Source: an uncultured Verrucomicrobiae bacterium (GTDB lineage: Bacteria; Verrucomicrobiota; Verrucomicrobiia; Chthoniobacterales; Terrimicrobiaceae). Taken from it: DNA of 64,000 nucleotides. The stretch covers positions 1 through 64,000 of the forward strand of contig CAVPOC010000007.1 of NCBI GenBank assembly GCA_963706955.1, read 5' to 3'. The translations under genes were made by a program, and so were the position numbers. The notes beneath the pieces are model-generated. The model saw nothing but the letters and a program-made list of their open reading frames with translations, did no database searches and was not told where the DNA came from. Positions 556 through 26,011 of the stretch are shown in pieces (within the stretch, counting starts at the first letter, position 1; each line of letters opens with the position of its first letter).

Positions 556-1470
556 TTACCGGGTGACCCCAGCCTCTTGAGTCCCTCGAGCCAATTGAAG
601 GTCGGCTTGGAGTCGGGCGTTTTTCGCCTCCAGCTCAGCAACCGTGGCTTTGAGCCGGTCGCGTTCCTCTTCCAGGGCATCCTGCATGCACTTCATCGCT
701 GTGAAGTCTTTATTGATTCCGCAGATACCGATGACCTCCCCGCGGGTATCCAGAAGCGGCAATTTGGTCGTGTAATCCCAGGAGATTCTGCCATCACGGT
801 GAACAAGCCTTTCGATTTTTCCCACGAGCGGTTCTCTCGTCTTCATGATCCTCTGCTCGTCTGCCGCAGTCCCTCTTGCTGTCTCCACCGACCAAAAGTC
901 GAAGTCGGTTTTCCCGATGAGGTCCTTCGCACTTGAGGCGCCAAGCAGTTCAGCGACCGAACGGCTCGCGCGAAGAAACCTTCCGCGTCGATCCTTAAAG
1001 TAAATCTGGTCCGGCGTATTCTCGAGTAGAAAGTCGAAGATGTCGATTGGGTCGCGCTCTTGCGAAGCTGAATTATCATGACAATTCACCTGCCTGGCGC
1101 CGCACTCCCGCAGGATCTCCATGACTTGCTCGGCTCGCACAGTGTCGGTTTTAACAAAGACGAACTGGCCATTTTCAGAGAAGGTCGTGGCATAGGCCTC
1201 GATCACCTCGTTCGGCAAGTCACAATCTGCAAGACGGGCTTTAAAGGCCCGGGCGACACGATGCCTGCCCCGCTTGGTTAATAACTCGGTGCTGCCCCAG
1301 GACACCGCCGGACCATAGCCCGACCAAAAGACTACCGAACCGAAGCTGCCTGGCTCTCCGGCCACGATGGCCTCATCGTAAACAGTGTATTCAAATCCAG
1401 CGTGAGTCAGTCTCCCGAGGGATTTGTCCAAGTCTCGTTCATTGTCGAATATCCCTACTATGGTCGTCAT
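556..1470 (-). CDS. PAS/PAC domain protein with unknown N-terminal domain; probably truncated before an output (PP2C/SpoIIE-type) domain
   Basis: LLENTPDQIYFKDRRGRF...DLIGKTDFDFW...TTKLPLLDTRGEVIGICGINKDFT is a PAS-PAC. It is followed by a coiled coil ending ADLQLARGTQ, like the linker into SpoIIE phosphatases, then an abrupt stop. Confidence 0.7.
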   Translation of the reverse strand: MTTIVGIFDNERDLDKSLGRLTHAGFEYTVYDEAIVAGEPGSFGSVVFWSGYGPAVSWGSTELLTKRGRHRVARAFKARLADCDLPNEVIEAYATTFSENGQFVFVKTDTVRAEQVMEILRECGARQVNCHDNSASQERDPIDIFDFLLENTPDQIYFKDRRGRFLRASRSVAELLGASSAKDLIGKTDFDFWSVETARGTAADEQRIMKTREPLVGKIERLVHRDGRISWDYTTKLPLLDTRGEVIGICGINKDFTAMKCMQDALEEERDRLKATVAELEAKNARLQADLQLARGTQEAGVTR

Positions 1471-2264
1471 CAGAAGTGCGATTACCCGAGCCTATCGGGT
1501 TCGTCTAGTTACAAAGGCATTGGAGGGGCCGAGTTTCTGAGTTTCTCGAAAAATTGTTGGCAAGCGTGCCGAGCTCTCGTCTTGCCGCGAACGGGTGTTG
1601 ATCATCCGTCAGATCGACCCCGCTCTCTGTCACCTCTATTGATGAGATTGCGTGGGGGTGGGGGAAGGAGAAAGGGTCGGCGCCGGATTAGGCGACGAGG
1701 TCTAAATCGGATGTGTAACAGTATGGAGCTTTGGCGCATCGCTGATCTCCTCCGAGCTGTTTGGCGACGAAAGGATTCCAAACGCCGCTGCGTGGCGCCT
1801 CATGGTCAAACTCGACGTTCGAGCCGTACGCGAATGGTATCGGCAATCCAGACCAGACAGATCCCCGGGACGAGGCGATGCCATGGACCGTGCCAGTCCC
1901 ACTCGGCGCGTGCCACGCGGCGCCGTTAACGCTGGCGGAATCAGTTATTCGAGCCGTCCTGCTCCTGTCGATCCGCCCGCCGCTCCTGTCGATTTTCGAC
2001 GACACTAAGGCGAAGGTCATCGAAGAGGTTCGCTTTGGACCGGCTTATACTCCTGCTGATAGTTCGTATAGTAGGCATTCCGGCTGTCTTACAGCACGTC
2101 GATGCTGTCCCCTGAAGGAGTGCTGACGACTTCTGCCCTTAGCGGTGGATCGCCATGTCCGTGTAGAGGCGCAGCGCCGCCCACCGCGTCGGGAGCGTAG
2201 AGGTTACTGATGAGATGAATCCCGCAGGCGATGCATGGGGCTTCGATCGAGCCTTGGATCGAGC

Positions 2265-18034: not shown

Positions 18035-18472
18035 TCAATTGACGTAAGAAAGGCGGACCTTCCAGTCATCCGCGTCGTGGACGTAGATCACTAAAGCACG
18101 GCCCTTGGCGTGCATATGATGTTTATATTCCATGACCGCACATATTTCATTGCCGATCGCATACACCTGAACAATCTTGAGTGACTGTGGTGCGGGGTAA
18201 GATGCAAACTCGGCCTCATACCTTTTTACAATAGCTGGCAGTCCGACAGCCGCACCATCTGGCTCCCACGTCCAGACATCGATCGCGTCTTGCGTGTAAA
18301 AGGCAGACCAAGCGGCCGCGTCATGTTTATTATACGCCTCCTCCCTCCTCTTTGTTACCGCTTCGATCTGCTGACGTATTTCTGGATCGACCGAATTTTG
18401 CTCTTGGGCGAGGGCTGGCGCGGCAACGGTGATTGCCAATCCTGCGAGGGTCAATATGAAAGGCATTTTCAT
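18035..18472 (-). CDS. Secreted SnoaL/NTF2-like domain protein
   Basis: Signal peptide (APALA), then EEAYNKHDAAAWSAFYTQDA...DWKVRL. Confidence 0.75.
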   Translation of the reverse strand: MKMPFILTLAGLAITVAAPALAQEQNSVDPEIRQQIEAVTKRREEAYNKHDAAAWSAFYTQDAIDVWTWEPDGAAVGLPAIVKRYEAEFASYPAPQSLKIVQVYAIGNEICAVMEYKHHMHAKGRALVIYVHDADDWKVRLSYVN

Positions 18473-18933
18473 CGTCTCCTCATGGTTTAGGATAGTGGGG
18501 GCCTAGCGGCCTGCTTCGAGATTATCTTACGTCGCCGATCTCTGCATACCAAAAGGAACTTCCAGGACTTTTTCGGCTTCCAGGGCAAATGATCCTCCAG
18601 CCAGCTTGGTCGTCGCCAACGGTCAAGAGCAAAATCGGCTCCTCGCCGATCCATCGAATGAGAGTGAAGACTGACAAAACAACCACGCAAGGAGACTCGA
18701 TAAGCCAGCCATTGACCACAAAGTTCCATGACGCAGTCATCCTCCTGCAGAGCGGATTTACTCAAGGAGAGAACCTCCATGCTCAGCTCGTTCTCCGCCC
18801 ACACGCGCATTGCATCATCCTAGAGATGCCTTCGCCCACACTCATGATTAGCAACCTCTCAAGACGAAGGCCCAGACGTCTCTAAGCTTTCGCGCGAAAC
18901 TAATCGGCGCGCCTTCCGAATATCTTTTTTGTT

Positions 18934-18993
18934 AGTCTCTTCAGTGCGAGCTTCACTCGCAGACCGCTCCTTTCTAAGGGAACGGTTTCGACT
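18934..18993 (-). ncRNA. Type II hammerhead ribozyme HH2, directly after the ORF stop codon
   Basis: AGUC-GAAA-CCGUUCC(CUUAGAAA)GGAGCGG-UC^-UGCGAG(UGAAG)CUCGCA-CUGAAGA-GACU. Complete core, three stems, GUC triplet; predicted cut between 18962 and 18961. Confidence 0.92.
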
Positions 18994-19455
18994 TCAGTTA
19001 TTCGCCACCGTGTTTGCCAGCGTATTGGATCTGTTCGCGATTTTGGTGGCTTTCTCTTCCAGACCGATCGTAACGTATTCCTGCATTTCGTAGGCCCACG
19101 TTGCGGAATCCGATTTGTTATATTTTCTGCAGAACTCGGTCGCGTGGAAGTAGCAGTCATATTTGATCGCAGCGGCATGCTTCAGGGCCTCCGCCGGACC
19201 GCCAAACTTGGCTTCGAGCCACAGTTGCACTCTATCAGACAGAATAGCAAATTCCCCGTTCATGACTCCGCTTTCGAGACTCCGGCGCTCTCCGTTGCGG
19301 ATACGGAGGTCAACGGTATTCCGCTGAGTTGCCCTTTTCCTGCCGCTTACATGAAAGACTTCGCGTTCAGAACGCTCCGGAAGTGAAGGATTTTCCGCTG
19401 AGACAGCGGTGATCGTGGTGGCGGCGATTGCCGTGATTAGGGTTAGTGTTTTCAT
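18994..19455 (-). CDS. 153-aa hypothetical protein bracketed by hammerhead ribozymes
   Basis: The ORF fills the space between the two ribozymes. A/C-rich unstructured leader AACAACAACCAACACAAACCA before ATG; stop codon abuts HH2. Confidence 0.75.
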   Translation of the reverse strand: MKTLTLITAIAATTITAVSAENPSLPERSEREVFHVSGRKRATQRNTVDLRIRNGERRSLESGVMNGEFAILSDRVQLWLEAKFGGPAEALKHAAAIKYDCYFHATEFCRKYNKSDSATWAYEMQEYVTIGLEEKATKIANRSNTLANTVANN

Positions 19456-19482
19456 TGGTTTGTGTTGGTTGTTGTTCTAACG

Positions 19483-19535
19483 AAGTCTCGTCAGCGCGAG
19501 TTGGACTTGCGGACCCCTCTCGGGGGTTTCGACTT
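19483..19535 (-). ncRNA. Type II hammerhead ribozyme HH1, in the 5' leader
   Basis: AAGUC-GAAA-CCCC(CGAGA)GGGG-UC^-CGCAAG(UCCAA)CUCGCG-CUGACGA-GACUU. Complete core, GUC triplet, one A-C mismatch in stem I; predicted cut between 19512 and 19511. Confidence 0.88.
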
Positions 19536-19638
19536 GGCGGCAGACTTTGTCGGTCTGCCAGCGGCTAGGACCGCTTCGGGAGGTTTCGGTTGCCGCGGAG
19601 TGAAAGGGAATTTCGCTGGCTGATTGGTTACATGTATT

Positions 19639-19676
19639 AAAATAACTTATACGTAGAATAATGCAAGGTATTGCAT
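19639..19676 (-). promoter_or_regulatory. Putative sigma70 promoter with overlapping palindromic operator, upstream of the ribozyme cassette
   Basis: AT-rich patch. Minus strand TTGCAT-N16-TATTTT; palindrome ATGCAA-ggta-TTGCAT at 19661-19676 covers the -35. Confidence 0.45.
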
Positions 19677-20204
19677 ATATATTTCTTCTATTATGTCATG
19701 TTTCTTAACTGCGTGCCGTCTAAAACGCGCTGTTCGGCTGCTCGATGGAACGCAAATTGCTACACGAGATCCACTTATCGCCCAACGGGAGAGTGGATGG
19801 ACACGAACTCCGAAAGGGTGATTCATCGAAGAGCTTTAGGGGACGATGGTCTCAGGGAATCGACGAGCATGCTTGCCCGCTATGCTGTGTATATTCCGGC
19901 GAGCGTAACAAATCCGCTAGCCGATTGAGAACCTTTTGGGAACAAGATCGAGATTTGGGTTTCGAAATGCAGGCTGAGTGACCATATAACTACTTGACTA
20001 TCAACTACAATTCAAAATGGGTAGTCTCTGGTTTCGACTGTCCCGATATTGAGTTTCTCCCGCAAGCGATGGCTTCCGTACTTTCGCCCCGTATGTTTCG
20101 CTCAACGAAGCTGCCTGCAAGCTAACACAACATCAAGGCGCGCACCTTGCGCAACGACCCGCGAAGCACGGGTTCCCATCTCGACGTCGGCGGGTCCCGG
20201 CTGA

Positions 20205-20585
20205 TCAGGCTAGGCGATAGATCTCGATCGGCTCGTCGCGGCCCTTCAACTGCACCAACCCCAGAGATTGAGCACCGTGATCGTTCTCGCCAGCCTCGCG
20301 CAGCACTTCGGCCGAGGCGAGGAGCTGCGAACCGCAGTCCTTGTTGAGCTGCTCGATCCGTGAGGCGAGGATCACCACATTGCCGCTGATCGAATACTGC
20401 TGCCGCGCCTGCGAGCCGATGTTTCCGGAGACCGCCTCGCCAGCGTGCAGGCCGATGCCGATGCTGGTCGCCGGGATGCGCCCGGAGTCCGAGAGCGCCT
20501 TCACCGCCGCGAGAAGCTCGCGTGCGACCCTCAAGGCGTTTTGCAGTCGCGGCCGGTGGCCACGAGTGCGCCAAAAGTCGCCAGG
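20205..20585 (-). pseudogene. Class III adenylate/guanylate cyclase C-terminal fragment
   Basis: ATFGA...GIGLHAGEAVSGNIGS...YSISGNVVILASRIEQL...LKGRDEPIEIY; the N-terminus is missing. Confidence 0.8.
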
Positions 20586-20841
20586 CAGACAGGCAGGGTT
20601 CGACGACGATGATGCTTACGGGGTCGGGGCCGTCACCGGCCGGCGGTGGGAGAGGGACACTAGGGGCCACGGGACGGCGGTGACGAGCATGATCATCGAT
20701 CACCGCTTTGCCGAGCTAGGTAAGGTAATCGGTGATCCCCCGGCGCCACCGGCGATTCTCAATGGCGCTGCGCCGGGGGCGACGATCATACCTGTTAAAG
20801 GTCTCCGGTGGGACATTCGCATCCTCGACCTGATCACGGCG

Positions 20842-21550
20842 CTAATTACGTCGGCAGACTCTCGGGACTTTAACGCGTTGCGCCGCAGTAGGCGCGTGGG
20901 GGTTCCCAGGTTCTGGCACCGTCAAGCCGTTAGGTGCTCCTTGCTTAGACACCTGCGGAACAACGTGGGCACTAAAGCTAGCGCCGAAGAGGTGGACCAA
21001 ATTCGCGTAGAAGGAAGCGTCTTGCTCGCTTTTGATTGCTCCGGCTTCGTGGAGTTTGACCAACTCGTCGGCAATGCGCCGCGCTTCCACGTCTGTGTCG
21101 ATGCCGGATTCTCCGTTTGGCCTTTCTGCGCCACCACCGTCCCAACTTGGCGTACACGCGTCGTTTTCGCGGTCCATAGCCTCGGAAACACCCAGGACGC
21201 CCGTGGCACTTGAGCGATCACTGGTGTAGGGGCGATTTGCTCGCGCCTTCGCTTCCGAGTGGAGGTCATCGTTGTGAAACTGCGTCGCGAAGAACCCTTG
21301 GTCACCAAACCGGCGGACGGCTCCCCGATCGACACCGTTGGGGACAACAACGTCTTGCTGAGGGAGGTCTGCGGCGACGTAAGAGTCACGTTTTGTTATG
21401 ACACCGCCGGGCATTTCTGAGGGTTCTACTGGGGCGGTGGCTGGTGCGGGGCTGCCATCGGCTTTGAATCGTCGCAATTGGCCGACCAGATCGGTGGCCG
21501 TTTTGTCGGTGGATCTTTCGTCGATTTTTGGGCCAGCCAGTAAATGGTCG
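20842..21550 (-). CDS. Hypothetical protein(s) downstream of the ori-like element
   Basis: Long open frame co-oriented with the replication module; no recognised motif; start uncertain. Confidence 0.35.
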
Positions 21551-21556
21551 GCCATC

Positions 21557-21690
21557 TTTACTACCTTAACTACGTTATTTTCTGACTTACGCGCACGCGG
21601 GATAACTGAGCGTACCCCTATAGGCTGGCTATCCATGTTATACGCACGCGCGCGTAAGTTGGAATTTACCGTAGTTAACGTAGTCGGGTA
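21557..21690. repeat. ~135-bp imperfect palindrome, copy 2 (putative origin of the primase-helicase element)
   Basis: TTAACTACGTTATTTTCTGACTTACGCGC...GCGCGTAAGTTGGAATTTACCGTAGTTAA. Lies immediately downstream of the primase module; inverted homologue of 11302-11435. Confidence 0.85.
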
Positions 21691-22041
21691 TTTTCCCGAT
21701 AGCGATGGGGTTTGGTTGGCAGGGTCCAATCCGGTTCGGCCCGTTGGTCTGCGATTGATCCATCAAGGAGATAGCCGCGTGGTTTTTCGTGTTTAGCCTT
21801 GGCTGCGTCTTTGGCCTTATGGGCGAGTTCCTTATCGGTCCAAGGCGGTTCGCACTTGGTGTTGTAGATCTTGAGCCAGGCGAGGGTTTCGTCCACGGTG
21901 AGCGCCCAACCGTTGTAACAGCAAGCAAGCCACCTTGAACGTTTGCTTATGGCCCTCGGAGTAAGCGATCGCGGGCGGGATGGCGTCGAGATAGGCCTGG
22001 ATGCGCTCTTGGAGGCTCGGTTTTGATTTTCTTTCTTTCAA
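21675..22041 (-). CDS. Stand-alone primase C-terminal (PriCT-like) helical domain protein; frameshift near 21920
   Basis: YLDAIPPAIAYSEGHKQTFKVAC joined to GWALTVDETLAWLKIYNTKCEPPWTDKELAHK. The start overlaps the helicase stop (22038-22041). Confidence 0.65.
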
Positions 22042-24185
22042 AATTCGCCTTGTTCGTAAGTCGTCTGGTCATCGTTGGGGATGTCACCGGACTGGTCGTC
22101 ATCGGTTTGAGTGACTTGCGCGAGGGCCACATGGGGGTAACCGCGGGCCCGTTTGCCGTTGCGCACGATATTGGCACCAACATGGACGCCATGGATTGAC
22201 ATCATGATATCAGGGAGAGCGCGTTCGGCCTGCTTGATGCCGTAGGGGCGCCAATTGCGCTCATCGCAATAGTCCATGTATGCGGTGACAAGCTCCTCGG
22301 TAGAGAGTCCGGGCCCGCCGCGCACGCGGTAGACGCGTTCGGCGACGAAATATCTCACGCTTTCGCTTTCGGCGAGCAGGTGATCCACGCGGGCTTTTGT
22401 GCATCTGTCTCGATGAAATTGCCGCGCGCTTCGAGTTCGGCGAGGTGGGCAATTGCGCCGGCCACGGCTTTGCGGAGGATGCCCGGAGCCTCTTCGGCGA
22501 AGAGGATTTGGGCGTAATTGCCGATTCGCTCTTCCTCAGGAATGACGTTTAGAAATTCGAGCATCATGAGTCGGCGGCGCCATGCTTCCACATCGGTTTC
22601 GCCTTCCAGCCTTACGAGCAGGCGTTCGTTGCACGTAATCATGCAATCGAAGTCGCCGTAGACCGGGACACTTACCATGGAGCCCTTAACCTCGCCGGGG
22701 ACGTAGTCGTGGCCCACCAGTTTCTTGAGGGCTTGAGCGCCATCTTCCTCGAGGAATCTGCCCGGGACGTCCTTGGCGGTGAGGAGCGAAAAGCCGAAGA
22801 GCCGTCCGATTTCAAAACGCTCGTGAAGGAACTTTGTGCGCAGAGCAGTGCAGTTGGTTAATCCCCGAACCATTTCGACGACTTCCGCAATCGTGCTTTT
22901 TGCGGTAGCTGCTTTCCCAATCAAGAGCAGGATTCGCTGGGCTGCATTACCAGTAAGCAGGACAGAGCCGAACCAGCGCCAGAAGAGGCTTATATCGTCG
23001 GGGGGAAGGCCGAACTCCAACAGAGCATCAAACTTTGGGCAGGTAGCGTCCGGATCCCAAACAATCGAGGATTGGGTTGCGCGCGTAATAGGCGGGACTG
23101 AAGGGCATCAGTTCCCATGAGCCGTTGCTGCTGATCTTGAGCATGCCATTGGCGCAGTGAATAATGTTCTTGAGTCGTTTGAAGACCTTGCTGCGAGCGG
23201 AGTGAGATCGAATACCGCTGACCAGCGCATTCAGTAGGCCGTTATTAATTTTGAAGGCGAGACCGGGTTCATTGAAAAGGTGGGTGAGCCGCTCCCACTC
23301 GGAGCGCACAAGTTCCTTGATAAGTTCTGGAACAACCGCTTCCCAGGCGCCGTTTACCGCATTGTAGCGGCAGAAGCGGTTTTCATCATGCTCAAAGAAG
23401 ACCAGGTTTTCGCGACAGATTCTTTGGACGAAGTAGCTCTCATTGATGACAACGGCGCCCTTCTCGGTGACATAAAAGGCCGGTCCACATTTGGCCGTGA
23501 GTTCCGCGTCTATGTCGCGCGGTGGTGGCGGCGCAGCTTCAGGTTTCGGTTCTGGCGGGAGAGGCTCAAGCAAGGTCGCCTCTTCGGCGCGGATGAAGAT
23601 ATTTTCGTCGTGACTAACGAAACAAAGACGGGCTAGGTCCTTACAGTTGTCGACCTTGGCGCCGTAACGCTCCCGAAAATATTTCTGCGCGGCGGTAAAG
23701 CTGCGCTCGTGGCTTGTCACGTCGGGCGCAATGCGTAGAAGAACTTTTAGACCTGAGCCGGTTGGCGAAATGAAGCAGGCTTGGACATGATCGTCACTGG
23801 CGAGAGCGAGTTTGAGCGACGCCCCGTCTTCAAGGTGGTCAATATCGAGACAGAGCAAGCCCGAATGGGTAGTGATATGTTCGTTCGCGCGTTGAGAGAA
23901 CTCACCGCTAAAAAGCACGCCCGGGAGCTTCTTCTTGATGTCGTGGACGGCCTCCTTTGCGGTCTTATATGGGTCTGGGTTGCCTTGCTGTTTGGCAGCT
24001 TGAAAGGCGCTTAAATACCGCGTCTTGACGTGGGCGACTGGTTTTTGCCAACGCCCGTTGCATATGCCCGCGAGGATGACGGCAACCGTAACGTGCTCGG
24101 TGTTCGTGTCGGTCCCATTTTGCACCATTGAGACTCGGGTGGCATCCCACGGACGAGCCGGCGCACCGTTTTGTGTAGGGCCCAT
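22038..24185 (-). CDS. BT4734/VirE-N-like primase-polymerase fused to D5-N and P4/D5-type SF3 helicase; frameshifts near 23040-23070 and 22380
   Basis: KKKLPGVLFSGEF...HSGLLCLDIDHL...FISPTGSGLK...CKDLARLCFVSHD (BT4734-like AEP); IHCANGML...FSPAYYARN (D5-N); AAQRILLLIGKAATAKST, LKKLVGHD, ITCNE, AWRRRL (SF3 helicase); C-terminal STEELVTAYMDYC winged helix. Confidence 0.85.
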
Positions 24186-24186
24186 C

Positions 24187-24383
24187 TTAGCGAACCTCCG
24201 CTTCGGCTTCGATGCGCTCGATGTCCGAAAGACGGTATCGCAGCAGTCTTTGGTTGAAGCGGATGGACCTCAAAACTCCTTGTCGCTCGCGGCGTTAAGG
24301 GTTCCGGTGCTGATTCCCCATCGAGTGGCGAGCTGCCGCCGGGAAATCAATACCTCTCTCGCTTGATTTGTTTGGGTCGTCAT
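24187..24383 (-). CDS. AlpA/excisionase-like small HTH protein (1-nt frameshift near 24295; missed by the ORF track)
   Basis: MTTQTNQAREVLISRRQLATRWGISTGTL + RRERQGVLRSIRFNQRLLRYRLSDIERIEAEAEVR*. The stop lies just before the primase ATG (24185). Confidence 0.75.
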
Positions 24384-24443
24384 AATGACCCAAACAAGCC
24401 GGAAACTTTCTGATTGTCTTCCCCCTGAAACCGCTAAGGAGTT

Positions 24444-25520
24444 TCAGGGGGTACGGCGAATCTTGTCCCGGAACGGGTAGGAAAGAGGAATCTCGTCGCG
24501 CGGAACAAGGCCTCCGAAAAGCTTCCTCAGGTCCGTGGTGACACGGGCGATATCGGCTCGCACTTTCTTCTCGGAAGCATTTGCTGAAATTGGTTCCTTA
24601 AGCTGCTTGTCCCTCGGCGCGAATCGAATGCCTTGTTCCCTATTCCGTTCCTCAGCTGCAAGAGCCTCGTCTTGAATCCGCTGACCACCCACGAATCCGC
24701 TACCAGCTTTCCAAAGGCGCATTTCTGCCAGTCGCTTTAGCCATGCCTTCGTTACTGTGAGGCGCTGACCACGTGGCGGCGGCATATGTTTACAATATTT
24801 CTTTCGATATTCTGTCGCCCATTTTCGAAACTCTCTGACGATCTGCTCCGTAGTTCCATCGCCCCATCCGATGCGCAAGATGAGCTTTTCGCCTGAACTA
24901 TCGACTTCTCTTCCGCTGGTTGGCCAAGCTCCGGCACGCCACGGATAATGCACAACAAGCTTGGGAGTGACCACTGCGGCTATAGCCGCCTTTCGCAATG
25001 ATTCATGCGTCGCAGTCCAAGGCTTGTCTGGAAAATCTGGTAGTCCTAAGACGATCCGTCCACTCTTTAACTTGGCAAATACCAGCAGCGCCAAACGCCA
25101 GTCGTTCAGCGGATTTTTAGGGCGATCCTTGCCGGACATCGCGGCTCCTAACTGTAGATACTCAATCCAACCCCACATGAAATTGTCCAAGAAGCCCGCC
25201 TTGCGTTCCTCCAACACCTTATTCCATTCCGGCGGTATTTCATTCGGTTTCGCACCGGGGCTGAGGCTCTCGCTGAACTGCGACTGAATTTCGGCTTCCG
25301 CTTCGCGGTCGTGCTCTTTTTAGAGAGCGAAATATTTTCCCGCAAGCCCTCTGATTGTCGACGATTCGCGAGCATACTCGTAGAAGATGCACGCTTCAAG
25401 TTCCGACGTTGAAACGCTGGAAAAGTCCCACTCTGATTGCGGTAAGGTCAACCGTCTCCTCCAGAGCCGTGATTTCTCCGGTTCTTTTCAATTGCGATTT
25501 CGGGTCTCTCTTGAGCCATG
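24444..25520 (-). CDS. Hypothetical protein of the integrated element, frameshifted
   Basis: 257-aa ORF 24444-25217 plus an upstream coding-like segment SEWDFSSVSTSELEACIFYEYARES. It sits just upstream of alpA. Confidence 0.55.
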
Positions 25521-25884
25521 TGCGCGGTACGCGGCAAAGGCCATTTTGCGACAGCGGGGCGCGCTCTTCCGCCTCAACTCACCGCCGCCCTGTCCTGCCC
25601 TTTTTCTACTGCCTCGCCAACGATCACCGTTCTTACCATGAAAAGAGCCTGCGACCGGTAAAGCGTCGCTTTTTGGGTATTGGGGAGCAATGGAGTAGAG
25701 AATACGTGTAACGCGTTCAGTCTTTTGGACAGCTCAGAGTCTTCGAGTGTAAAAGTGGCCCGTGGCCAGCCAGATGGAGGACGTGCGCTTCCCACGCGAC
25801 CCAGAGCCGTTAAGCGCGACCGGCGCGGGTTTGCAGAAGCAATCGCCGAGCTCACCGCCTGGAGAAAACGATTAAAAAGTGATT

Positions 25885-25902
25885 GAGCGGTATCAACCGC
25901 TC
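25885..25902 (-). terminator. Hairpin downstream of tRNA-Gln (putative terminator)
   Basis: GAGCGGT-atca-ACCGCTC, followed on the minus strand by AATCACTTTTT. Confidence 0.45.
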
Positions 25903-25937: not shown

Positions 25938-26011
25938 TGGCTGCCTCGCATGGATTCGAACCATGACAAAGTGATCCAGAGTCACTTGTGCTACCGTTAC
26001 ACCACGAGGCA
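25938..26011 (-). tRNA. tRNA-Gln (anticodon CTG)
   Basis: TGCCTCGTGGTGTAACGGTAGCAC-AAGTGA-CTCTGGA-TCACTT-TGTCATGGTTCGAATCCATGCGAGGCAGCCA: cloverleaf, TTCGAAT T-loop, encoded CCA. Confidence 0.97.

Follow-up and report, generated by a model that had tools for sequence, protein, structure and literature searches.

Multiple hammerhead ribozymes often flank single genes or short gene blocks in prophages, as the passages on such arrays in Perreault et al. (2011, PLoS Comput Biol, PMC3088659) describe. Three of these tandem gene-flanking arrangements were reported there to cleave in vitro, and one of them also in E. coli. According to the same passages, stem II of a hammerhead can be as short as two pairs, and most type II hammerheads can form a pseudoknot of at least four pairs between loop I and the bases after stem II (PMC3088659). 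Here we describe two type II hammerhead motifs, HH1 and HH2, that flank one small gene on the minus strand of a stretch of DNA from an uncultured soil Verrucomicrobiae bacterium of the family Terrimicrobiaceae (assembly GCA_963706955.1, contig CAVPOC010000007.1, positions 1 to 64,000). This stretch of 64,000 nucleotides (nt) was analysed as a whole and is called the window in the following. As far as those passages go, the locus resembles the published arrays in having co-oriented hammerheads, including type II, around a small gene beside mobile-element genes, and the role proposed there, the cutting of a transcript to gene length, is also the one that we propose for the window (PMC3088659).

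In Desulfovibrio vulgaris, active type II hammerheads near phage genes have been demonstrated by cyPhyRNA-seq, in which 2',3'-cyclic phosphate and 5'-hydroxyl (5'-OH) ends are captured, as stated in the relevant part of that report (PMC8782182). What hammerheads do for bacteria and phages is still described as an open question in the corresponding section of a review, and it has been proposed in reviews that the new ends of bacterial hammerheads alter stability or translation (PMC6765202).

In the window, a short transcript with a single gene, for a small secreted helical protein, is rather likely punctuated by two paralogous type II hammerheads. The motifs are present and conserved, they covary between copies, and the region is transcribed. 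They may serve to insulate the gene against its neighbours and, through the new ends, to alter the stability or translation of the mRNA.

Results

Two type II hammerhead motifs flank one open reading frame

By direct reading of positions 18800-19700 we found two complete hammerhead motifs of the type II permutation on the minus strand, one on either flank of a 153-amino-acid (aa) open reading frame (ORF). HH1 covers 19535-19483, with C17 at 19512 and a predicted cut at 19512/19511. HH2 covers 18993-18934, with C17 at 18962 and a predicted cut at 18962/18961, and the two predicted cuts are spaced by 550 nt. The ATG of the ORF is located at 19455, 27 nt past HH1, and HH2 begins at the base after the TGA stop codon (18996-18994). 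In both motifs the strands follow each other in the order stem II 3' strand, GAAA, stem III hairpin, cut, stem I hairpin, CUGANGA and stem II 5' strand; loops close stems I and III and stem II is open, which is the type II topology.

HH1 is composed of AAGUC, GAAA, the stem III hairpin ACCCC-CGAGA-GGGGU, the C before the cut, the stem I hairpin CGCAAG-UCCAA-CUCGCG, CUGACGA and GACUU. The corresponding parts of HH2 are AGUC, GAAA, the stem III hairpin ACCGUUCC-CUUAGAAA-GGAGCGGU, the C before the cut, the stem I hairpin UGCGAG-UGAAG-CUCGCA, CUGAAGA and GACU. In each motif the core is complete, with C3-A9, G12-A14, A15.1-U16.1 as a pair and C17 all present; the cut-site context is GUC^C in HH1 and GUC^U in HH2, and the junction pairs A15.1-U16.1, N10.1-N11.1 and N1.1-N2.1 are standard in both. 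Stem I has six positions with one A.C mismatch in HH1 and six base pairs (bp) in HH2, stem III including A15.1-U16.1 has 5 bp in HH1 and 8 bp in HH2, and stem II is short, with 5 and 4 bp, respectively. When HH2 was folded alone, its minimum-energy structure was the hammerhead fold (z -2.74).

An earlier note on this DNA had proposed two type II hammerheads with complete cores around one 153-aa ORF, and our reading of the minus strand as well as a descriptor search (see below) confirmed both motifs and all of the coordinates. The same note had held that stems I and III of the two motifs differ almost entirely in sequence. This was refuted: HH1 and HH2 can be aligned along their whole length, with a mean column identity of 77% over six copies, and they have the same pairs at four of the six positions of stem I and at the first three of stem III. 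Judged by this alignment, HH1 and HH2 are paralogues (duplicates) and not sequence-unrelated motifs.

The descriptor required GAAA, CUGANGA and H17, together with 4 bp or more in stem II and with both stem I and stem III closed. Exactly two matches were found in the window, HH1 and HH2, and three on both strands of the whole genome of 4,155,808 bp, the third one (C15:72780-72672) having poor stems. No match was found in each of five block-shuffled genomes. Since two matches are located on the same strand, 542 nt apart and around one ORF, they do not represent a chance event. Moreover, a covariance model built from six local copies (R1) detected only HH2 (77.2 bits) and HH1 (66 bits) in the genome of the window. 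R1 matched five of the 102 genomes of the family, including that of the window, and all five belong to one genus; among 151 genomes sampled from the phylum, only the genome of the window was matched. In these 102 family and 151 phylum genomes, the hammerheads thus appear as a local subfamily found only in this genus. Two other rows obtained in the window with Rfam in E-value mode, PVT1_2 and rnk_pseudo, were at chance level and were rejected.

The cassette is conserved in related genomes

A congener (G015) carries the same cassette on its contig C29 (locus L006) with a DNA identity of 76%. Along the cassette, the identity is 73% in a promoter-like stretch, 78% in a leader (87 of 95 aligned bases identical in G015:C29), 82% in HH1, 40% in the spacer between HH1 and the ATG, 74% in the ORF and 90% in HH2. 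It is 34% in the 54 bases after HH2, and the homology ends at the 3' edge of HH2. The values for HH2 and HH1 compared with that for the ORF show that the ribozymes are better kept than the gene between the two species.

Compared with the window, a U-A pair of HH2 stem I is replaced by C-G in G015, the A.C mismatch of HH1 stem I is replaced by G-C, and N7, the only free core position, is changed from A to U. In the six aligned copies, standard pairs make up 96.1% of the pair cells, versus 31-49% when the partners are slid by one to three columns, and two pairs are changed on both sides. Because the sample is small and closely related, the covariation is supportive and not decisive.

The earlier note had raised the question whether homologues of the ORF are flanked by ribozymes as well. 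The complete cassette, with a ribozyme on both sides, is present at all three homologue loci with readable DNA, namely the window, G015 and a metagenome contig of 1,259 nt (L007), in which both ribozymes surround a protein with 88% identity. Further searches for cassette loci yielded one genome contig, which is the G015 locus, and one metagenome contig, which is L007, and no locus among viral contigs. Among 401 genomes sampled from the order, only the genome of the window (G000) was matched; G015 was outside that draw.

Further copies were found in another congener (G018) and in G009, G013 and G012. The G018 copy (47.1 bits with R1) forms an entire hammerhead, in which each of the three stems differs in a compensatory manner and stem II has GCC/GGC instead of GUC/GAC. 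It is located 27 nt before the ATG of an 86-aa ORF, a gap similar to the one between HH1 and the ATG in the window. In the match in G009 (L013 = G009:C12, 1501-1569, minus strand; R1 36.4 bits), an additional A separates A9 from stem II, and an ATG in its loop I opens a frame of 90 codons. In G013 and G012 only stem I and the catalytic strand are kept, with GAUA in place of GAAA and with a 60-nt insert; the partial copy of G013 has the same A9-to-C change as L007.

RNA libraries cover both sides of HH2

The stretch or a part of it was found in 20 public runs from nine studies. Nine of these runs are recorded as RNA libraries, some of them very small, and the RNA is found even in very small RNA-library assemblies, from a rhizosphere source, of 8-13 million letters. 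Three RNA runs from three studies (X7, X11 and X19) and one DNA run (X1) were placed on 18300-20300. The RNA data are assembled contigs, from which ends, strand and level are not readable.

In X7, contigs cover 18782-18950 and 18992-19611. In X11 they cover 18652-18950 and 19015-19576, with a variant piece reaching to about 19597, and in X19 one contig covers 18978-19597 and continues upstream as an indel variant. RNA libraries therefore contain sequence from either side of HH2, and no contig of the three runs extends across 18951-18977, the interval that holds the predicted cut. The first base of the downstream pieces is the same in two independent studies, 11 nt below the HH2 cut, and the upstream pieces stop 16-53 nt above it. 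The upstream ends of the RNA contigs lie at 19576-19611, and the cover does not spread into the flanks, unlike that of contaminating DNA. The gaps at 18951-18977 and beyond 19611 (X7, X11) prove nothing by themselves. No circular or other joints were reported in the three RNA runs, as contigs, which drop rare forms.

The flanked gene encodes a predicted helical protein with a signal-peptide-like start

The ORF (18994-19455, minus strand) encodes an N-terminal segment that resembles a signal peptide and a C-terminal part that is confidently helical. We found 26 homologues of the protein, all of them from metagenomes or metagenome-assembled genomes, and in common they have a hydrophobic N-terminus of the signal-peptide type and good conservation of the C-terminal part. 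Differences between the window and G015 number 31, 28 and 54 at codon positions 1, 2 and 3, and the 151 codons comprise 66 identical ones, 37 with synonymous and 48 with non-synonymous differences. By these substitution patterns, the ORF is a real gene under moderate constraint.

Structure prediction with AlphaFold, using the family alignment, gave a mean predicted local distance difference test (pLDDT) score of 75.2 and long helices at residues 41-152. The protein had no family match in Pfam, PHROG or NCBIfam, and a Foldseek search against the PDB returned nothing at E<=0.001 (best E 1.5). Oomycete RxLR look-alikes from the ESM Atlas (0.80-0.86) fall below the reliability line of the Atlas; as a relationship they were rejected, and they were read only as a signal peptide plus helices. 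From the predicted structure, the product is best described as a small secreted or periplasmic helical protein.

The upstream region contains a conserved leader and a promoter-like stretch

HH1 and the ATG are separated by a CA-rich spacer of 27 nt (19456-19482, minus strand) with no obvious Shine-Dalgarno sequence. At the start of this spacer, a hairpin of 7 bp, CUGACGA-GACU-UCGUUAG (19477-19494, minus strand), pairs the catalytic strand of HH1 with the first spacer bases and competes with the hammerhead fold. The hairpin is present in the minimum-energy structure of the 5' region. The modelled probability of a free core is 0.002 for HH1 versus 0.36 for HH2, and freeing the HH1 core costs more than in all of 60 shuffles of the tail. 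We considered a core-sequestering tail hairpin as a trait of the family and rejected it: three or fewer of 60 shuffles reached the value of the native tail in only three of seven copies, and the HH1 orthologue of G015, with 19 of 60, is outside these three. We therefore offer the competing hairpin only as a local explanation for a weaker HH1, as the folding model suggests.

Upstream of HH1 lies a conserved leader (19536-19630, minus strand), which has the hairpins AGCGG..CCGCU and GGCAGAC..GUCUGCC (fold z -2.99) and would be lost on cleavage by HH1. A part of the leader (19567-19597, minus strand; also in L002/L006 and L005) holds GAAACC..UCCC..GAAGCGGUC and resembles the 5' half of HH2, i.e. 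GAAA, stem III and GUC. This resemblance was noted by eye only; the stretch is without CUGANGA and may be another decayed copy.

The leader is preceded by an AT-rich, promoter-like stretch (19631-19700, minus strand), in which TTGCAT ... TTTAAT was recognized by eye and which is conserved in three loci. A sigma-70 scan found no promoter site there by its own criteria, and the promoter is for this reason only a presumed one. In G015 the same promoter-like stretch and leader also occur on contig C4 (L005, about 1300-1700, minus strand) before a different signal-peptide gene (MKTL...) and with no hammerhead. By sequence comparison, both the promoter-leader unit and the start of the signal peptide seem to serve as modules that are used repeatedly. 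About 150 nt upstream of the promoter-like region (19700-19850 in the window, about 3600-3830 in L006) are approximately 85% identical between both species. Since this part translates equally poorly in three frames, it was treated as non-coding and would represent conserved non-coding DNA or RNA; a low-depth RNA contig of X19 lies on 19733-19891.

Viral hammerheads show the same placement

We scanned viral contigs for type II hammerheads with the GUC...GAC pattern and obtained at least 131 stretches. Among the matches listed, 80 viral loci contained 101 distinct matches, 46 of which passed a stem check, and the following numbers refer to these matches. In 76% of 45 cases, versus 7% of random positions, the hammerhead starts at -6 to +10 nt relative to where an ORF of 40 aa or more ends (median 2 nt). 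It ends 10-60 nt before the next ORF of at least 40 aa in 70% of 43 cases, versus 26% of random positions (median 33 nt). The geometry of the window, 0 nt after the stop codon and 27 nt before the ATG, matches this placement, which thus appears to be a rule for the class. Many of the viral contigs listed carry several co-oriented copies.

Dense arrays of the published kind were seen as well: one viral contig (L088-L090) has at least eight co-oriented type II hammerheads about 200-870 nt apart, and another viral locus (L086) has three, spaced by 284-289 nt.

The cassette is located near a tRNA gene and a P4-type primase

The earlier note had placed the cassette inside a tRNA-linked mobile island. 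A P4-type primase or PrimPol is encoded upstream of the cassette by two adjacent ORFs (22355-24185, minus strand, with the parts 23028-24185 and 22355-23020), which match BT4734-like_N and DUF5906 in Pfam, DNA primase families in PHROG and primase_Cterm in NCBIfam. The split into two ORFs may indicate a frameshifted or decaying gene. A tRNA-Gln gene (CTG) at 25938-26011 on the minus strand (ARAGORN; 62.4 bits with the Rfam tRNA model) is a possible integration target. The region 18900-25900 is mostly without matches in 18 congeners.

None of the seven PF00589 matches of the genome, i.e. candidate tyrosine integrases, is on the contig of the window (C7), and we found no direct repeat matching the end of the tRNA gene that could mark an attachment (att) site. 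In G015 the cassette is surrounded by unrelated genes (LtrA, LytTR, PEBP) and lies 2.2 kb from a tRNA-Arg gene, and the G018 hammerhead lies 0.9 kb from a tRNA-Leu gene. The proposed tRNA-linked island is plausible but incomplete. The setting can fairly be called the remnant of a mobile island next to a tRNA gene, an intact element being only putative.

A candidate relic of a third hammerhead is located about 480 nt upstream of HH1 (20019-20040, minus strand). It consists of AGUCGAAAC with AGAGACU attached almost immediately, as though its interior were lost, and scores 10.4 bits with R1 (E 0.045 in 3 kb). It is one of seven GTCGAAAC sites in the window. By its sequence, it is possibly a gutted third copy of the local type.

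Discussion

In our view, transcription probably starts at about 19620-19630 on the minus strand and reads past HH2 to at least 18652. HH2 would fold once it is made and cut efficiently after C18962, 32 nt behind the stop codon, which would separate the gene from the downstream RNA and leave a message whose last element is the stem III hairpin, carrying a 2',3'-cyclic phosphate. HH1 could cut after C19512 in a fraction of the molecules, thereby removing a structured, triphosphate-bearing leader of about 100 nt and leaving a 5'-OH end, 56 nt upstream of the AUG, at which the stem I hairpin comes first. It would be the weaker or conditional ribozyme of the two, because of the mismatch in stem I and of the 7-bp hairpin, which may lock the catalytic strand after the next 12 nt have been transcribed. 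The chemistry of these ends is established for the hammerhead class, and we infer it for this locus.

The main alternative is that the hammerheads are decaying leftovers of an older phage-type array, with little or no cutting in the cell and of no use to the gene. We consider this unlikely, and several findings that weigh against our own view have to be set out here, most of which would fit decay. In L007 each ribozyme has one core substitution, A9 to C in HH1 (CUGACGC) and U4 to C in HH2 (CCGAAGA; L007 1-59 and 551-616), and the gene is intact; at least one lineage has thus kept it with no canonical ribozymes. The reduced copies of G013 and G012 and the possible gutted copy at 20040-20019 point in the same direction. 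Stem II has only 3 bp in G015. We looked by eye, with no formal search, for a pseudoknot between loop I and the 3' tail in seven local copies and found no conserved one; the best pairing involves five of six positions with an internal mismatch (HH1 of the window and of L007), and nothing comparable was seen in G015 or in the HH2 copies.

The scores obtained with Rfam belong to the same group of findings. HH1 reached 16.9 bits (E 2.3) with RF02276 (Hammerhead_II), whose gathering cut-off is 37 bits, and HH2 had no match at E<=10. At the gathering threshold, Rfam returned only a tRNA and no hammerhead in the window, and the copies of G015, L007 and G018 gave no match with RF02276 at E<=0.1. The covariance-model search that the earlier note had suggested as a check thus succeeded by half, as RF02276 stayed below its cut-off with HH1 and found nothing at HH2, whereas the local model R1 finds both sites. 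This shortfall reflects the model rather than the motif, since viral contigs with the same GUC...GAC pattern of stem II score 30-47 bits with RF02276.

A last group concerns cleavage in the cell. The HH1 cut site is bridged by contigs in all three RNA runs, which shows that uncut HH1 molecules exist. At HH2, the contigs lack ends and strand and the DNA control X1 has contigs only on 20176-20300, outside the break, so that the break is a weak hint. Taken together, the RNA libraries give a weak hint that HH2 cuts in the cell and that HH1 cuts incompletely. The release of a 550-nt RNA by two cuts, as the earlier note had predicted, agrees with the geometry and with this hint at HH2; with uncut molecules bridging HH1 in three runs, a clean 550-nt product is only putative.

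What makes decay unlikely is that, between the two species, the coding sequence is less well conserved than either ribozyme and that the stems of the ribozymes show compensatory changes. Moreover, N7, the sole core position that is free to vary, is the core position that differs between the window and G015. Decay is also at odds with the RNA libraries at HH2, where no contig covers the cut site though both of its sides are present.

Alternatively, HH1 could be a conditional switch between cleavage and the hairpin that hides its catalytic strand, and the speed of transcription or a factor that binds the leader would set the share of molecules that lose the leader and thereby the expression of the protein. 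This explanation, which we regard as quite unlikely, would agree with the dominance of the CUGACGA/UCGUUAG hairpin in the modelled ensemble, where it is stronger than with any of the shuffled tails. It would also agree with the conservation of the leader hairpins, the use of the leader with another gene in G015:C4 and the uncut HH1 in all RNA runs, while HH2 is never bridged. However, the hairpin is not a trait of the family and is not shared by the HH1 orthologue of G015, no ligand or protein is indicated, and the energy model ignores tertiary folding and co-transcriptional kinetics.

Promoter, leader, HH1, gene and HH2 might further constitute a self-contained, transferable module whose RNA is long-lived owing to the ribozyme-made ends, in its extreme version as a circle of 550 nt. 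We judge this very unlikely. If true, it would explain why the RNA could be assembled even from very small rhizosphere libraries, why the homology ends at the 3' edge of HH2 and why the neighbourhoods in the two genomes are unrelated.

The circle itself would arise from the 550-nt piece by the host RtcB, for which 5'-OH and 2',3'-cyclic phosphate ends are substrates, or by the reverse hammerhead reaction of a chimeric HH2/HH1 motif formed at the junction, and would be a message protected from exonucleases. The genome encodes one RtcB (541 bits), HH1 and HH2 share stem II letters so that a joined molecule would rebuild a hammerhead, and the RNA is present even in very small assemblies; yet RtcB is common (10 of 14 control genomes), no back-joined contig or joint was found in the three RNA runs, the main RNA contigs continue upstream across HH1 and hence represent linear precursors, and circular or spliced products of tandem hammerheads were sought and not detected according to the passages on this point in PMC3088659, which makes a circle hardly credible.

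Our preferred reading, a short transcript punctuated by two ribozymes of unequal strength, leaves the knowledge of the hammerhead class unchanged. Nevertheless the case is small and tractable, with one gene, two ribozymes, a promoter-like region and RNA in public rhizosphere libraries. Furthermore, the type II model of Rfam misses a genus-level subfamily with a perfect core, and counts of bacterial hammerheads that are based on its cut-off are consequently underestimates.

Viral hammerheads recognized by RF02276 have the same core, topology and placement behind stop codons as those of the window. They differ in their scores, which are 30-47 bits with ten rows over 37, some of these being the same site in overlapping loci, whereas HH1 stays at 16.9 bits and HH2 has no match. 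In synthetic insulators of the RiboJ type, a self-cleaving ribozyme is placed after the promoter and ahead of the gene; its cut strips off the variable 5' leader, and a hairpin remains at the 5'-OH end. RiboJ is engineered and based on a different ribozyme, and it serves as an analogy only for how HH1 could work.

The chromosomal type II hammerheads of Desulfovibrio vulgaris, as described in the relevant part of that report, resemble those of the window in lying by phage-derived genes (PMC8782182). There, single sites were found at three loci and cleavage was measured, whereas the window has a pair around one gene and cutting is hinted at by contig breaks.

The layout of hammerheads that flank a gene is not new, as it was described for prophages in 2011 (PMC3088659). 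Compared with the arrays in those passages, the locus has only two ribozymes and one gene, an apparent promoter of its own and a conserved structured leader. Moreover, it is located in a bacterial chromosome with no integrase on the contig, its motifs score far below the Rfam cut-off, and no pseudoknot was recognized by eye. Specific to the window are thus the chromosomal location, the single gene with its promoter-like region, the genus-restricted subfamily that the Rfam cut-off misses, the natural relative with one changed core base per ribozyme and the weak in-cell hint of unequal cutting. Overall, the locus represents the hammerhead punctuation of bacteria and phages in a reduced form, with a single gene that has a promoter-like region of its own and lies in a bacterial chromosome.

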